DNA from: a virus
Lineage: Duplodnaviria > Heunggongvirae > Uroviricota > Caudoviricetes
Reading direction: 5' to 3' (one strand)
Length of the DNA stretch: 41,556 nt
IMG/VR virus record: IMGVR_UViG_2802429245_000005
Positions 2,734-36,531 of the stretch are shown piece after piece. A program made the translations under genes and the position numbers. The notes beneath the pieces were generated by a model. It ran no database searches, was not told the origin of the DNA, and saw nothing but the letters and a program-made list of their open reading frames with translations. Positions within the stretch are counted from its first letter, which is position 1; each line of letters begins with the position of its first letter.

Positions 2734-3138
2734 TCATGCGTTACCATCGTCTTTTCTCCCCGGAATTAACTCGCGTGGATTATCGGAACGGTGGTAGAGC
2801 CATATACCAATACGCACAGCAACAATTGCTGACACGAATGCGCCAGCAGAGAAAACAATCCCTTTTTCAAAAGAGTCCTGCGTGATAGTAGGGATCAGGC
2901 TGGCTATGCCGATAAGAATTGATGCTGCTGGTTTATAAAAAAGAAGGCCGCAGAGAAAGCTAAGCATCGACAAGAGTACACGACGACGAATGGGATACTC
3001 TACCGCAGAGGTAACAAAAATTACCGCTCCAGCCAAAGCCCCCAAAGCAACCTCAGGAGGAACTCCTGCTATCACCGCCGCCAGAGAACTCATGCTAAGC
3101 CACTGATTTAAAGTTTCACTGGTTAGTTGAGCTGACAT
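2734..3138 (-). CDS. Multi-TM membrane protein, putative holin
   Basis: ATG at 3136-3138 preceded by GGTGG. About 134 aa with 3-4 predicted hydrophobic helices, immediately upstream of the endolysin. Confidence 0.5.
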   Translation of the reverse strand: MSAQLTSETLNQWLSMSSLAAVIAGVPPEVALGALAGAVIFVTSAVEYPIRRRVLLSMLSFLCGLLFYKPAASILIGIASLIPTITQDSFEKGIVFSAGAFVSAIVAVRIGIWLYHRSDNPRELIPGRKDDGNA

Positions 3139-3358
3139 GTTTTCCACCGTTTATATGCATAACTACCTCCTGAACAGTAAAGCATTATGCATGATAAACC
3201 ATTTATGGTTTTTTGTTACTTCAACATCGTCAATCCCCTGTTTTCATGCCGATAATAAGGCTCACCTTTTACATAACACTGAAGAAACAACAGTACAGAA
3301 ATGATTCAAACTATGGAGATCGGGTTGAATACCGCGCCATCAAATGGCGCGGTAGCGA

Positions 3359-3655
3359 TCAAATAGAGAAATAAATACAAAAACAAAAAATGACAGGAAC
3401 AGCAAAATCCAACAGACTTCCCACATCCCACACGCGTGGGTCAAAACCTCCCCACCATGGCATGTTGATACGTTTCCCTTTCCCAAACTTTTCTATCCAG
3501 CGATATTCTGCCTGGGTGTGTTCACGCGCAATGAAGAACGTACAACCGGCTATCGCACCGTAAGCCCAGTTTCCTGTTATTATTCCGAAGAAACATTGCA
3601 CAATTATTGATGCAATAGCATGGACAAAAGGAGAATAGTCAATATTATTCATCAT
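3359..3655 (-). CDS. Small integral membrane protein of unknown function
   Basis: ATG ATG at 3650-3655 preceded by GAAGGTG. About 98 aa, hydrophobic (IASIIVQCFFGIITG..., FAVPVIFCFCIYFSI). Followed by a 10-bp perfect-stem hairpin at 3331-3354. Confidence 0.45.
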   Translation of the reverse strand: MMNNIDYSPFVHAIASIIVQCFFGIITGNWAYGAIAGCTFFIAREHTQAEYRWIEKFGKGKRINMPWWGGFDPRVWDVGSLLDFAVPVIFCFCIYFSI

Positions 3656-3684
3656 AACACCTTCATGAATAAACCATATTCTGC

Positions 3685-6426
3685 TTACACAGCACAAATC
3701 CTGATCGTTGCTGTGATATCAGTTTCAGTGCCATTATTGAGATATAACCTACCGCCTACAATTGACATCCCAATTTTGGTAGAAACTTCTTCATCTGCAG
3801 ATGTCACCACCACGTTTGTTTTATTGTAATTACCAAGCGGAGATTCATCAGTCGAATGCCCTGGCCTCAATATCATTCCTACACCTGCAAAGAAATTAGG
3901 GTTCCCATTATTTATAACATCCACACAATAAGATAATGCGCTTTTACTAAGTGGGATGGATTGACTTGTATGTGCCTTAACCCACATTTCCCATACGTAT
4001 TCACTTTTACGTATCGCCCCCTCACATGAACCAGATGCATGGAATAACTTTCCTGATGATACAGTGTTATTGGTGCCAACAAGAATCATCTGATTTCCAC
4101 CACCAAAGCCAAAGTTATCACCAAGAGATGGTCCACCATTAATCCTTAACATATATGCATCAGTACTGCCTGATGAGGCGTCAGAGTTATCTATATATAC
4201 AGTGCAATCACTTATAAGAACGCCATCAATCTTATCTGGCGCAACAGTATTAGTTTGGACAACGACGAACTCTCTGGTGGTAGATTTTGCCGAACAACCT
4301 TTAATAATTGTTGGTGTTTCAAGAGTATATGTTTGAGTAATAAAAATGAAATTACTAGGACGAAGCTTCCGATTAACAGCATTTGTTGCTTTCCACCATT
4401 TATTGCTTGATTCGGTTGTTTCGCTAAAGCCATCAATATAGTGAGTATCGGTAATAGTAATTCCGCTACCATAATACAAACGAATCGGAAGGTTGCTAAA
4501 TCCTCTAATCTCGCAACCAGATACTATCTCATTAAAACCACGTATAGTTGCGCCATAAAAACAGTCAACTGCCACATTGTCTTTATATTTAGACTCTGCG
4601 GCACCACCATGACTACCAAACCCATAGGAAAATTCAGTCCATCCTTCCGATGGAAATATAATCCCACCAGTATAACCAGTTCCGCCACCACGCATTGTAA
4701 TGTTGGTTACATTATTGTAGAGAGAACTCCAGTTACTCCCTCCAATATCAACACCACGCCTACAACAAGATGCATTGATATTGTCCACAGTGCAGTAACT
4801 GCTATTGGAAACAGAAACAGCATTACCTGTACCACCATCACCATTGAAAACTCTATTGATTCCATACAGAGATGTATCACGAACAGTGCATCTTAAGCAG
4901 CCTAACAAGGTAATCCCAGCATTCGGGAAATTTTCCACACTAGCGAAACTGGCAATACCGTTTACGCAATATTCGAAGACAACCCCATCATAAGCTTTTT
5001 GTCCGCTAGTTGCATTGGTAACTAACCCGTGTATCGTCCCAACATGAAAATCTCCAGAAATATTAAATGTAGCAGGATAGACAGCCCAGGCCTCAGCTTG
5101 CCTAACCAAACGAAATGTATCTCCTGCAGCAGGTTTATTTGGGAATCCAGTGTCAGCATTACTACCAATAGTAAATGTTTTTGTGTCATCATCATATGCT
5201 GTAACCATTTTGGTTATACCAGCATTATCTCCCGTTAATCCAAGAATTTTATAGAGTGCATCACGAGGTGGTGATGTCACTGAGAAATTTGTAGATGTAA
5301 ATGATTGCCCACTAGATGCGCCAGTAACTGTAACTGTAATATTCCCTCCTGAACGGTAGTAATAATATGCATCCTGATCTAATGTCACATTATTTCCACT
5401 AAGTGAAACGACTTCAACAATTTGCCCTTCCTGCCAACTTCCTCGGTTATCTCCACGAACAAGGTGGTTATTACGAATAACAAGCAAATCTCCGACAGAA
5501 ATATCAGACACATCATCAAGAGTCACAGTCTTTTCGCCCAATGATATATCTCTCGTTATGAAATTATGCAATTTAGTACTTGCAATTCCACCAAGCTTTA
5601 TTGCTGAACCTTCATATCCTACAACATTATTTGTGCAGAGCAATTCAACCTTTCCTGATGCCACCCAATCGAAGCAACCATATGGAATGGAAATATCTAT
5701 TTGTGAAAACAGGTACTTTCCTGCTGTCCATTCCAAACGCTTTCCGTTAGATGCGCAGTAAATGATGGCATTTGTTATTGCGTCTGTATCGTCAGTAATG
5801 CCATCCCCTTTTGCACCAAAATCGCGAACATTGACGATATCCCGCATCTTATCCTGGAACGTTCTGTATACTGCTCCAGAACCATACTGAATAAACAAAC
5901 CAAAACCACCAACAACTCCGGCGATTGCAGCATCGACATAATTACGCATTGAGCGATTATTTACAGCATCCTGCTCAAGTGATGGATCTGCAAGGTTAGA
6001 AATTCTGTTTTGTTTTGCATCGTAATATTTTGCAAGCAGAGAGGGCTTCATCAATGCACGTCTGAACCACCCAAAACATTGCTGGATCAGCATCGTCAGA
6101 TAGTCAAAGGCATCCTCATGCACTTCGGGGAAAAATTTTCCCTGATTGCGAAGGTCTGTCTCCTGCACTACATCAAGCACACGATCTATCGTAATTCGCC
6201 ATCCAGCAGCAAGCGGAGACGGAAGAACCACAGAACCGCCACTATAAGTGCCCGCCCCAGTTACCGTATAACCGGTATCCAGAACCAATTCTGTTACGTT
6301 CCCGTTCAGGTCAGACACCTGAACAACCAGGTCTGATTTTCTGAAAATTCGAAAAGTATACGGAAACGATGTCGTAACGCCGTTACCTGTGTATTCGTTG
6401 TGGTCAACTTCGGTTGAGACCGTCAT
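3685..6426 (-). CDS. Tailspike with N-terminal virion-attachment domain and pectate-lyase-like beta-helix receptor-binding/depolymerase domain
   Basis: 913 aa. RBS GGAG 9 nt upstream of ATG (6424-6426). VRDFGAKGDGITDDTDAI motif typical of right-handed beta-helix glycanases. Downstream two-thirds is AT-rich by eye. Confidence 0.85.
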   Translation of the reverse strand: MTVSTEVDHNEYTGNGVTTSFPYTFRIFRKSDLVVQVSDLNGNVTELVLDTGYTVTGAGTYSGGSVVLPSPLAAGWRITIDRVLDVVQETDLRNQGKFFPEVHEDAFDYLTMLIQQCFGWFRRALMKPSLLAKYYDAKQNRISNLADPSLEQDAVNNRSMRNYVDAAIAGVVGGFGLFIQYGSGAVYRTFQDKMRDIVNVRDFGAKGDGITDDTDAITNAIIYCASNGKRLEWTAGKYLFSQIDISIPYGCFDWVASGKVELLCTNNVVGYEGSAIKLGGIASTKLHNFITRDISLGEKTVTLDDVSDISVGDLLVIRNNHLVRGDNRGSWQEGQIVEVVSLSGNNVTLDQDAYYYYRSGGNITVTVTGASSGQSFTSTNFSVTSPPRDALYKILGLTGDNAGITKMVTAYDDDTKTFTIGSNADTGFPNKPAAGDTFRLVRQAEAWAVYPATFNISGDFHVGTIHGLVTNATSGQKAYDGVVFEYCVNGIASFASVENFPNAGITLLGCLRCTVRDTSLYGINRVFNGDGGTGNAVSVSNSSYCTVDNINASCCRRGVDIGGSNWSSLYNNVTNITMRGGGTGYTGGIIFPSEGWTEFSYGFGSHGGAAESKYKDNVAVDCFYGATIRGFNEIVSGCEIRGFSNLPIRLYYGSGITITDTHYIDGFSETTESSNKWWKATNAVNRKLRPSNFIFITQTYTLETPTIIKGCSAKSTTREFVVVQTNTVAPDKIDGVLISDCTVYIDNSDASSGSTDAYMLRINGGPSLGDNFGFGGGNQMILVGTNNTVSSGKLFHASGSCEGAIRKSEYVWEMWVKAHTSQSIPLSKSALSYCVDVINNGNPNFFAGVGMILRPGHSTDESPLGNYNKTNVVVTSADEEVSTKIGMSIVGGRLYLNNGTETDITATIRICAV

Positions 6427-6530
6427 GTTAAATCTCCAGATAGTCGCAGCACCCGTTGCGCCGCATATCTGGTTATTCTATTACCTGAAAAACCACATAT
6501 GGATAGAAAGACTGTAAATACGAATAGATA

Positions 6531-6545
6531 TTACCTTTCAGGTAA
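6531..6545. promoter_or_regulatory. Palindromic operator-like site TTACCTTTCAGGTAA
   Basis: Exact TTACC-N5-GGTAA between the divergent tailspike (start 6426) and gene 6622. Confidence 0.6.
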
Positions 6546-7650: not shown

Positions 7651-7665
7651 TTACCTTAAAGGTAA
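7651..7665. promoter_or_regulatory. Palindromic operator-like site TTACCTTAAAGGTAA
   Basis: Exact motif 21 nt upstream of the start of minus-strand gene 6902-7630. Confidence 0.6.
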
Positions 7666-7743: not shown

Positions 7744-7758
7744 TTACCTTTGCGGTAA
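7744..7758. promoter_or_regulatory. Palindromic operator-like site TTACCTTTGCGGTAA
   Basis: Exact motif at the head of the structured leader upstream of the antirepressor gene. Confidence 0.6.
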
Positions 7759-8789: not shown

Positions 8790-8804
8790 TTACCTTAAAG
8801 GTAA
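8790..8804. promoter_or_regulatory. Palindromic operator-like site TTACCTTAAAGGTAA
   Basis: Exact motif immediately after a -10-like TAATAT (8785-8790) and 27 nt before ATG 8831. Confidence 0.6.
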
Positions 8805-26395: not shown

Positions 26396-26485
26396 ATCAA
26401 TGACTCCGTACGCAATTAAATTATTACCAATTTAACCACATATGATTTATTTATCGTAGATAGTTGACATTTAACGCACGAATTA

Positions 26486-26500
26486 TTACCTTTCAGGTAA
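26486..26500. promoter_or_regulatory. Palindromic operator-like site TTACCTTTCAGGTAA
   Basis: Exact motif next to TTGACA (26464-26469), upstream of the tRNA region. Confidence 0.6.
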
Positions 26501-26822: not shown

Positions 26823-26899
26823 GTGGCATTAGCTCAGCTGGACAGAGCAACCGCCTTCTAAGCGGTTGGTCGCAGGTTCGAATCCTGCATGCCACGCCA
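26823..26899 (+). tRNA. tRNA-Arg, anticodon UCU (reads AGA), phage-encoded
   Basis: Cloverleaf read directly: acceptor GTGGCAT/ATGCCAC, D-arm GCTC-AGCTGGACA-GAGC, anticodon stem ACCGC/GCGGT with loop CTTCTAA, T-arm GCAGG-TTCGAAT-CCTGC, discriminator G and encoded CCA. Confidence 0.85.
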
Positions 26900-27102: not shown

Positions 27103-27117
27103 TTACCTTGAAGGTAA
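27103..27117. promoter_or_regulatory. Palindromic operator-like site TTACCTTGAAGGTAA
   Basis: Exact motif 33 nt upstream of ATG 27150, downstream of the tRNA terminators. Confidence 0.6.
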
Positions 27118-29839: not shown

Positions 29840-29854
29840 TTACCGTTGTGGTAA
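29840..29854. promoter_or_regulatory. Palindromic operator-like site TTACCGTTGTGGTAA at the late-operon start
   Basis: Exact motif between the minus-strand terminator (29866-29891) and the terminase small subunit start (29822). Nested GGTAA/TTACC half-sites around it (29832-29861). Confidence 0.55.
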
Positions 29855-33393: not shown

Positions 33394-33408
33394 TTACCCC
33401 TGAGGTAA
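33394..33408. promoter_or_regulatory. Palindromic operator-like site TTACCCCTGAGGTAA
   Basis: Exact motif directly upstream of the start of gene 33046-33390. Confidence 0.55.
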
Positions 33409-33455: not shown

Positions 33456-33470
33456 TTACCAAACAGGTAA
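33456..33470. promoter_or_regulatory. Palindromic operator-like site TTACCAAACAGGTAA
   Basis: Exact motif between the P-like gene end and gene 33046-33390; 62 bp from the previous site. Confidence 0.55.
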
Positions 33471-35742: not shown

Positions 35743-35757
35743 TTACCTGTTGGGTAA
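35743..35757. promoter_or_regulatory. Palindromic operator-like site TTACCTGTTGGGTAA in immunity region
   Basis: Exact motif; third site, nearest the repressor-like gene. Confidence 0.6.
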
Positions 35758-36454: not shown

Positions 36455-36469
36455 TTACCTTATGGGTAA
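36455..36469. promoter_or_regulatory. Palindromic operator-like site TTACCTTATGGGTAA
   Basis: Exact motif about 20 bp upstream of TTGACA (36489-36494), ahead of the recombination operon. Confidence 0.6.
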
Positions 36470-36516: not shown

Positions 36517-36531
36517 TTACCCCAACGGTAA
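36517..36531. promoter_or_regulatory. Palindromic operator-like site TTACCCCAACGGTAA
   Basis: Exact motif immediately downstream of -10-like CATAAT/TAATCA (36509-36516); paired with the site at 36455. Confidence 0.6.

Follow-up and report, generated by a model that had tools for sequence, protein, structure and literature searches.

The DNA analysed here, IMG/VR virus record IMGVR_UViG_2802429245_000005 (41,556 nucleotides (nt); hereafter the window), is a segment of an E. coli chromosome in which the host genes yfgH and yfgI (1-1074) are followed by a Uetakevirus (epsilon15/phiV10-like) prophage. Between the tailspike gene and the lysis cassette of this prophage lies a small gene whose product, a predicted three-helix inner-membrane protein of 98 amino acids (aa), is a member of the widespread, catalogued but uncharacterised family PHROG 1443. 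What stays constant beside the genes of this family is a receptor-binding protein (RBP) gene, found in at least six phage lineages of which one is lytic, and not this genomic slot or the lysis genes. We strongly infer that the small gene is the distal cistron of a tailspike transcript and belongs genetically to the RBP cassette rather than to the lysis cassette. As a composite explanation, we tentatively propose an RBP-cassette gene for an inner-membrane, envelope-directed accessory protein, followed by a separate late-promoter element for the lysis genes; the chance that all of it is right falls somewhat short of even.

The small gene and its receptor-binding protein neighbours

The product of the small open reading frame (ORF) begins MMNNIDYSPF, and two candidate ATG starts give a protein of 98 or 97 aa. 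Purifying selection acts on this ORF, a real gene: relative to homologues in other lineages, the ratio of nonsynonymous to synonymous substitution rates (dN/dS) comes to 0.17-0.25. Its product matches the phrog_1443 profile with E 8e-50, the alignment pairing residues 5-98 with positions 1-94 of the 97 in the profile. At 90% clustering the protein has 422 homologues, every one of them named "hypothetical", and a profile search of 1.84 billion representatives returned 425 clusters (50% identity), all stand-alone proteins of about 95-100 aa, with no fusion informative on function among them. Beyond E. coli, members come from Aeromonas, Comamonas/Acidovorax, Halomonas, Desulfovibrio and sphingomonads. 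The phages nearest to the window are phiv142-3, EC.W1-9 and HEMP4, and one IMG/VR contig encodes a protein with 100% identity to the small protein across 98 residues.

The 152 loci whose upstream neighbours were examined come from IMG/VR and GTDB genomes. For at least 93 of them, the upstream same-strand ORF falls in a cluster represented by a tail fibre or tailspike, and the RBP clusters found upstream number at least 13, sharing less than 40% identity; the sample of about 93 RBP-linked loci is dominated by related E. coli prophages, which tempers the first count and leaves the number of distinct RBP families as the meaningful figure. Gaps between the RBP gene and the small gene are mostly -4 to +80 nt, while about ten loci have gaps of 177-399 nt, mostly with an intervening small ORF of about 92-95 aa. 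Specifically, the family gene overlaps the upstream tailspike gene by 4 nt in the Lederbergvirus (P22-like) JEP4 and the upstream tail-fibre gene by 4 nt in an Aeromonas P2/HP1-like prophage. It is separated by one small ORF from the side-tail-fibre gene upstream in lambdoid phage 21, is flanked by two tailspike genes in a Salmonella myovirus-type prophage, comes after the fibre genes of a Leclercia P1-like element, and stands beside a putative tail-fibre gene in the Aeromonas jumbo phage ACP1 (Ferozepurvirus), whose lytic lifestyle is assumed from its type. The association with RBP genes generally is stronger than that with the O-antigen slot considered below. We found no earlier description of the RBP-cassette linkage, the internal breakpoint or the prevalence of this family.

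Two further observations concern these neighbourhoods. An unannotated fragment of a family gene (residues 5-54, 46% identity) lies at 5001-5150 of the locus from Salmonella Kuttervirus vB_SalA_KFSST3 (L169), between two large tailspike-cluster genes of this lytic Ackermannviridae phage, and looks like a remnant brought in with a tailspike module. A second small-protein family of about 92-95 aa, acidic and soluble, is encoded directly behind side-tail-fibre genes (4710-4988 in L003, which is phage 21 gp23; 3994-4278 and 5601-5888 in L012). These ORFs behind the fibre genes of phage 21 and the P1-like element precede the membrane-protein gene and are unrelated to it; the acidic protein may be a fibre chaperone.

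Lysis genes do not accompany the family. They are absent from the fetched regions around the family gene in JEP4, phage 21, the Aeromonas P2-like and Salmonella prophages and ACP1, and outside the window they lie near it only in the Leclercia P1-like element, where the family gene comes just before a 104-aa ORF that is followed by a LydB-family gene. With lysis genes nearby in this one other examined context, the neighbourhoods are not those of a conserved lysis accessory factor, the outcome that the original prediction had set against itself. It is very unlikely that the protein is a holin, an antiholin or a lysis-timing factor ahead of the lysis cassette. The gene does adjoin that cassette in the window, four of 111 family members weakly match Phage_holin_8 (best E 5e-4), and T4 and T7 have holin genes behind their tail-fibre genes. 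However, a profile comparison with the neighbouring Phage_holin_8 (PF16931) protein gives an hhalign probability of 0.3%, and in the window the hairpin and a separate promoter element stand between the small gene and the lysis genes. Moreover, the cassette already has two holin-family genes, the holin-like PF16931 gene being followed by a second holin (PF05449), a GH19 endolysin and Rz/Rz1.

The tailspike gene, the small ORF, the gap and the lysis cassette all lie on the minus strand in that order, and the gene order from tailspike to lysis is the same as in phiV10 and epsilon15. Only a 29-nt spacer separates the tailspike stop codon from the start of the small gene, and therefore there is no room for a separate promoter or terminator between them. 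The tailspike ORF has no excess of sigma70-like sites (5 versus 8.5 expected), and no sigma70-like promoter was found on the minus strand in its last approximately 800 nt. Behind the small gene, a hairpin begins 4 nt past the stop codon. The hairpin proposed in the original prediction, with a 10-base-pair (bp) stem at 3331-3354, is real, and its stem is one pair longer than stated there (11 bp). Its 76-nt context folds at -24.1 kcal/mol (z = -4.7), a stability equalled in none of 200 shuffles. A canonical intrinsic (Rho-independent) terminator was rejected: the coding-strand tail after the hairpin, UAUUCAACCC, has no U-tract, and a terminator scan made no call. Among the compared Uetakeviruses, this hairpin is kept only in phages carrying the small gene, and the single C-to-T change in phiv142-3 preserves pairing, as G-U, only in the minus-strand RNA. 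Behind the family gene in Uetakevirus, lambdoid, P22-like and Aeromonas contexts there are strong hairpins whose sequences are unrelated, and in Comamonas there is a canonical terminator. The hairpin in the window is a probable weak terminator or 3'-end stabiliser closing the transcript. Given the 29-nt spacer with its Shine-Dalgarno-like sequence, the lack of a sigma70-like excess and the hairpins behind the gene in most lineages, the simplest reading is that the tailspike and the small gene would share one hairpin-closed transcript.

The small gene is also the place where similarity to other phages changes abruptly. Megablast matches to the closest phages end at window position 3577, inside the gene (codon ~26/27), and JEP4, Gally and lambdoid phages match 3396-3577 only. 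In nucleotide comparisons with phiv142-3 and JEP4, identity is 92-100% over codons 27-80 versus 36-64% over codons 1-26, and JEP4 shows a further sharp drop at codon ~80. These identity drops mark recombination breakpoints. Of 5,426 complete E. coli genomes, 1,926 (~35%) carry the DNA-conserved core of the gene, the median being two copies and the maximum seven, for about 4,000 E. coli copies overall, and in the same genomes the first approximately 26 codons of the window copy, together with the tailspike 3' end, have no match. From this pattern, the receptor-binding end of the tailspike and the first transmembrane (TM) helix of the small protein would move as one cassette, with the first approximately 26 codons travelling along with the tailspike 3' end and the core acting as the downstream crossover site. 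RBP cassettes are the most often exchanged and most heavily engineered parts of phage genomes, and the core may mark a concrete crossover point for RBP exchange.

Topology and possible role of the encoded protein

The description of the 98-aa product as a hydrophobic membrane protein, made from the letters in the original prediction, agrees with its hydropathy and with the AlphaFold2 model, which has three helices (8-27, 30-56 and 78-97) at a mean predicted local distance difference test score (pLDDT) of 84. Across 121 members, lysine and arginine residues average 5.9 on the side of the N-tail and central loop versus 0.3 on the other side. Applied to this charge bias, the positive-inside rule points to a topology that is probably N-in/C-out, with the conserved loop at the cytoplasmic face. 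Helices, hydropathy and charge bias together predict an integral inner-membrane protein. The family alignment has 12 invariant positions (G33, R44, T47, A49, E50, Y51, R52, W53, R62, P66, G69 and G70) and 32 near-invariant ones. Conserved positions cluster in FIAREHTQAEYRWI...G.GKR.NMPWWGGFD.R.W, which belongs to a nearly invariant, probably cytoplasmic 33-residue loop (REHTQAEYRW...NMPWWGGFD); outside it D6, P9, H12, Q20, four glycines, C38, D83, P87 and C91 are conserved.

Neither fold nor sequence libraries gave a functional lead for the small protein. Scans of the 98-aa protein against Pfam, NCBIfam and PADLOC returned no match, and 111 aligned members compared with Pfam (E up to 5) gave scattered matches to TM segments (PhoR 13, DUF5325 6, Phage_holin_8 4). 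No lipobox is present. By hhalign, homology was rejected to the epsilon15 alpha-polymerase inhibitor (probability 0.3%), P22 GtrA (0.2%), HK97 gp15 (0.15%) and P22 SieA (0.08%). A search of Rfam (E up to 1) gave a match to IS102 alone, at 21.5 bits versus a gathering score of 46, which was taken as chance. A literature text search found no paper containing the string REHTQAEYRW, and the phiv142-3 study tested orf6 (tail fibre) and orf10, with orf5, the small-gene homologue, neither tested nor in the supplementary table.

In related podoviruses, the slot between tailspike and lysis cassette often carries O-antigen genes, as had been predicted. It holds an O-acetyltransferase gene (oac) in phiV10, TL-2011b, Tyrion and PAS61, and a gene for a wzy-like polymerase with a 66-aa alpha-polymerase inhibitor in epsilon15 (five of nine relatives in all); it is empty in ZX5, holds other ORFs in YDC107_2, and holds the small gene in the window, phiv142-3, EC.W1-9 and HEMP4. 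In JEP4, the small-gene homologue occupies the slot corresponding to P22 gtrABC. These positions favour a role in lysogenic conversion, in which a prophage-expressed protein would alter the O-antigen, for example by inhibiting Wzy, Wzz, WaaL or WecA in the manner of the polymerase inhibitors of epsilon15 and D3 or of the Gnarl proteins, and exclude phages using the same receptor. The conserved loop probably lies at the cytoplasmic face, where the O-antigen repeat units linked to undecaprenyl phosphate are assembled, and small stand-alone phage proteins can alter the O-antigen, as passages of PMC12373910 describe. We nevertheless consider this role unlikely. The small gene runs in the same direction as the tailspike gene and is coupled to it, no promoter of its own was detected, and a repressor operator lies in the tailspike promoter region upstream; in P22, phiV10, epsilon15 and Tyrion, by contrast, conversion genes are encoded on the other strand, and P22 gtrABC has its own annotated promoter. 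Additionally, the family occurs in the jumbo phage ACP1, and it is also linked to fibres not known to bind O-antigen (P1-like, P2-like and lambdoid side tail fibres). No link of the small protein to O-antigen chemistry emerged from the comparisons with GtrA, the epsilon15 inhibitor, Pfam and NCBIfam, and the invariant motifs of the family are missing from the supplementary files of PMC12373910. The likely tailspike-coupled transcript, unlike the opposite-strand conversion genes, and the occurrence in a lytic phage together weaken a purely lysogenic-conversion role.

The neighbourhoods could also be those of a membrane-anchored factor for the folding, oligomerisation, modification or attachment of the tailspike or fibre. 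Such a helper would account for the strict adjacency and translational coupling, the family gene lying immediately 3' of RBP genes, sometimes with a 4-nt overlap, in at least six lineages including a lytic one, and a position behind the fibre gene is typical of the fibre chaperones Tfa, gp38, U and G. However, the conserved core is independent of the RBP fold (beta-helix tailspikes, P2-type and lambda-type fibres), the close relatives ZX5 and phiV10 make tailspikes without the small gene, and the sphingomonad copies are not beside RBP genes. To our knowledge, no known RBP chaperone is an integral membrane protein. We regard this explanation as improbable.

We propose instead that the small protein would be made together with the tailspike, from a transcript that would start at a late-type promoter containing CCATATGTGGTTT and end at the hairpin. 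It would insert N-in/C-out with the invariant 33-residue loop probably at the cytoplasmic face. Working alone, it would most likely target some conserved envelope function of the host at the inner membrane. This could be a lipid-carrier-dependent step in surface-glycan synthesis or the route of DNA entry, and the phage would gain by keeping further phages out, or by losing fewer progeny to wasteful re-adsorption and to debris. The lysis cassette would be driven by a separate late-promoter element that recurs at the tailspike gene and the structural operon. Most of our confidence in this account comes from its genetic and structural statements; the functional class, an envelope-directed effector, is more doubtful, and is suggested because of the inner-membrane location, the cytoplasmic loop, the independence of RBP type, the co-expression with the RBP and the occurrence in temperate and lytic phages.

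Several points weigh against the envelope-directed account and the gene arrangement beneath it. The transcript structure has been deduced from the DNA, the hairpin has no U-tract and a non-consensus internal promoter is possible. A gene expressed only late would be a poor fit for classical superinfection exclusion by a prophage, an inner-membrane protein cannot mask outer-membrane receptors directly, and the conserved part of the protein does not co-vary with RBP type, which makes a receptor-specific role unlikely. In four loci (L152, L154, L158 and L160), which come from one Sphingomonas genome and three metagenome-assembled genomes (two Alphaproteobacteria/Pseudomonadota, one Burkholderiales), the upstream gene is ligA, encoding an NAD-dependent DNA ligase, and not an RBP gene. 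This adjacency hints at a chromosomal and perhaps cellular role in that clade, unrelated to phage adsorption, naive ORF calling in high-GC DNA being too noisy to follow sphingomonad synteny beyond ligA.

The proposed effector has parallels among known phage proteins. T5 Llp and Cor of phi80, N15 and T1, cited in PMC12373910 and PMC10883804, block receptors, and their genes lie beside RBP genes in phages of either lifestyle, lytic or temperate. Both are lipoproteins of the outer membrane with specificity for FhuA. In contrast, the small protein has no lipobox, is predicted to reside in the inner membrane and shows no co-variation with RBP specificity. HK97 gp15 and P22 SieA are, like the small protein, small integral inner-membrane proteins acting alone, and their genes likewise lie inside or beside clusters of virion-structure genes, HK97 gene 15 being a moron in the tail operon with a terminator behind it. 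SieA has three predicted TM helices (PMC10883804). Both proteins are expressed from the prophage, each against one phage type, and sieA has its own annotated promoter, whereas the small gene is RBP-coupled, has no promoter detected, and turns up in lineages of podo-, sipho- and myoviruses and also in one lytic phage. The seroconversion proteins (Oac, Wzy-beta with its inhibitor, and GtrABC) share the slot beside the tailspike and are all membrane proteins, and the epsilon15 alpha-polymerase inhibitor, with two TM helices, is likewise small (66 aa) and stand-alone, but none is homologous to the small protein, whose family is not known to affect LPS. Gnarl1-3, which occur in lytic and temperate phages, are stand-alone phage accessory proteins of 40-90 aa that alter the O-antigen; passages of PMC12373910 propose that they keep out kin phages or stop progeny from attaching again to debris. 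In those passages Gnarl3 binds the cytoplasmic protein GalU and RBP linkage is not mentioned, in contrast to the membrane-embedded, RBP-linked protein described here. By analogy, the small protein may work like HK97 gp15, P22 SieA, T5 Llp or the Gnarl proteins, although it is homologous to none of those that could be tested.

This conserved membrane protein travels with RBP cassettes in at least six lineages and is present in about 35% of complete E. coli genomes, often in several copies. Should it influence adsorption, the entry of DNA or surface glycans, it would rank as a widespread determinant of cross-resistance to phages, would be relevant when tailspikes are swapped for therapy, and might explain prophage-dependent envelope phenotypes. 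In a bolder version, which we judge improbable, the family would be a universal "RBP-cassette companion": a tiny oligomeric membrane enzyme or inhibitor, perhaps resembling the 121-aa enzyme DgkA, whose active or binding site would be formed from the cytoplasmic-face cluster D6, H12, R44-E45-H46, E50, D72 and D83, and whose target would be a conserved lipid-carrier or envelope step. Its near-identical DNA core would serve as a homologous-recombination anchor by which modules for tailspikes and tail fibres pass among podo-, sipho- and myoviruses. Were this true, a very common E. coli prophage gene would both encode a novel effector aimed at the host and take part in the evolution of host range.

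A recurrent element upstream of the lysis, tailspike and structural genes

The gap between the small ORF and the lysis cassette (3139-3358 with ATG 3138 as the start of the first lysis gene, 3148-3358 with GTG 3147) contains the exact 7-2-7 palindrome AAACCATTTATGGTTT reported in the original prediction. The palindrome alone is not beyond chance, 20 of 100 window shuffles holding a match with at most two mismatches; its significance comes from conservation and recurrence. In the window, the motif has six matches at one mismatch or fewer versus 0.74 expected, a number reached in no shuffle. CCATA[A/T]ATGGTTT is invariant upstream of the first lysis gene in seven aligned phages, and the flanks of the motif have fully diverged in phiV10, TL-2011b and ZX5. 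The element is present in Salmonella phage epsilon15 as CCATATGTGGTTT and also in Enterobacter phage Tyrion, and PAS61 carries the flipped form CCACATATGGTTT, which fits a dyad-symmetric site. The suggestion that the palindrome marks a lysis regulatory region is strengthened by this comparison, its core being conserved in ten of ten Uetakeviruses.

The lysis-promoter stretch (3140-3260) carries the motif as CCATAAATGG, followed at a distance of 6 nt by a -10-like hexamer. At the hexamer position phiV10, TL-2011b, epsilon15, Tyrion and PAS61 have TATAAT or TATGAT, and a -10-like hexamer stands 6 nt after the motif in all phages checked (the window and those five) except ZX5. No TTGACA-like -35 hexamer was found 17 bp upstream of the hexamer, where the sequence is AAAACC. 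Two further copies of the motif lie upstream of the tailspike gene and of the structural operon, which runs from a 68-aa ORF and the portal gene onward. The core of the copy at the structural operon is identical in phiV10 and epsilon15, and the adjacent spacer differs in epsilon15. Among 171 fetched loci the motif is confined to those of Uetakevirus, and most fetched Uetakevirus loci extending over both regions have it twice. The palindrome core (yCAyAnnwGGTTw, 6 nt, a -10-like hexamer and no -35) thus appears to be a genus-specific late-promoter element, common to the three transcription units of the lysis cassette, the tailspike and the structural genes, and is a candidate late-promoter signature of Uetakevirus. 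Because of the fixed 6-nt spacing to the -10-like hexamer and the absent -35, an activator- or factor-dependent promoter fits, one probably read by a phage-encoded or phage-modified transcription factor.

That the palindrome is instead a repressor operator, or a chance palindrome in an AT-rich spacer, seems rather unlikely. A promoter scan does place it inside a weak GTAACA-17-TATCAT match (9/12), and a position between a would-be -35 and -10 is typical for a repressor. However, chance is excluded by the invariance amid diverged flanks in ten phages and the recurrence at three operon starts, and the spacing and missing -35 fit a promoter dependent on an activator or another factor, although a second protein may still act there as a repressor. 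Moreover, the genus already has another abundant operator palindrome, TTACC-N5-GGTAA, a site annotated as the repressor operator in epsilon15. The window holds 12 exact copies of it versus 0.75 expected, most of them in regulatory DNA between called ORFs. In the promoters of the tailspike and structural genes, it lies approximately 27-35 nt upstream of the motif (26486-26500 at the latter), and at the lysis promoter of the window it has decayed. The prophage repressor may act directly at many promoters, those of the tailspike and structural genes included.

The late promoters of P2 (Ogr/Delta) and Mu (C) likewise serve several late operons through a short dyad-symmetric element and have no -35 hexamer. 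Mu C-dependent promoters are treated in PMC4461284. The Uetakevirus element differs from these in sequence (CCATAwATGG-TTT) and in lying at about -31 to -19 rather than -40 to -55. We found no published description of the element or of a late activator in a search that did not take in the epsilon15 genome paper. Late-gene control in epsilon15-like phages could be approached experimentally through the CCATAwATGGTTT element.

An 8-bp inverted repeat, ATGCATAA/TTATGCAT (3155-3162 / 3185-3192), was noted upstream of the holin-like gene, in the region of 3114-3158 on the minus strand, where it flanks a strong AGGAGG and an out-of-frame ATG. In phiV10, its outer pair has changed from A-T to G-C, an apparently compensatory change, and the homologous region of the epsilon15 record is annotated as an RNase III site. 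This possible leader hairpin may not be transcribed from the proposed promoter, because its 5' arm overlaps the -10 hexamer.

Coordinates of the features and minor observations

Table 1. Positions in the window of the genes and sequence elements discussed.
Feature	Position	Strand	Remarks
First lysis gene, holin-like, 134 aa	2734-3138	-	PF16931 Phage_holin_8, E 4e-12; phrog_198, holin
-10-like hexamer CATAAT	3184-3189	-	exactly 6 nt downstream of motif
Palindrome AAACCATTTATGGTTT, exact 7-2-7	3196-3211		coding strand CCATAAATGGTTT (3208 to 3196)
GC-rich hairpin, 11-bp perfect stem, 3-nt loop	3330-3354	-	arms 3330-3340 / 3344-3354; 7 G-C pairs
Small gene, 98 (or 97) aa, predicted three-helix inner-membrane protein	3359-3655	-	PHROG 1443, function unknown
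DNA-conserved core of small gene, about codons 27-88	3393-3577	-	recombination breakpoint at ~3577
Shine-Dalgarno-like GAAGGTG	3658-3664	-	read from sequence; 2 nt before first ATG, 5 nt before second
Tailspike gene, 913 aa	3685-6426	-	phrog_13893, phrog_1171, phrog_14558, tail/tail spike; Pfam Pect-lyase_RHGA_epim
Second motif copy, exact (CCATATGTGGTTT, 6 nt, TAATAG)	6490-6502	-	63 nt upstream of tailspike start codon
Operator-like palindrome TTACC-N5-GGTAA	6531-6545		upstream of tailspike promoter; homologous epsilon15 site annotated repressor operator
TTACC-N5-GGTAA, copies 1-6	6531-6545, 7651-7665, 7744-7758, 8790-8804, 26486-26500, 27103-27117
TTACC-N5-GGTAA, copies 7-12	29840-29854, 33394-33408, 33456-33470, 35743-35757, 36455-36469, 36517-36531
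Third motif copy, slight variant (TCATATGTGGTTA, 6 nt, TAATAA)	26433-26445	-	upstream of structural operon (68-aa ORF, portal, onward)

Around the start of the small gene there is an AU-rich 8-bp inverted repeat, TTATTCAT/ATGAATAA (3645-3652 / 3665-3672). It could pair the start-codon region with the sequence upstream of the Shine-Dalgarno-like element, leaving that element in the loop, and may affect translation. Inside the 5' end of the small gene, antisense and directed toward the 3' end of the tailspike gene, lies the best sigma70-like match of the region (TGGACA-16-TATTAT, 10/12; 3621-3648, plus strand), a match to consensus only. Elsewhere in the prophage, a tRNA-Arg gene (anticodon TCT; 26823-26899, plus strand) sits between the regions for terminase and portal, and the structural genes are on the other strand.

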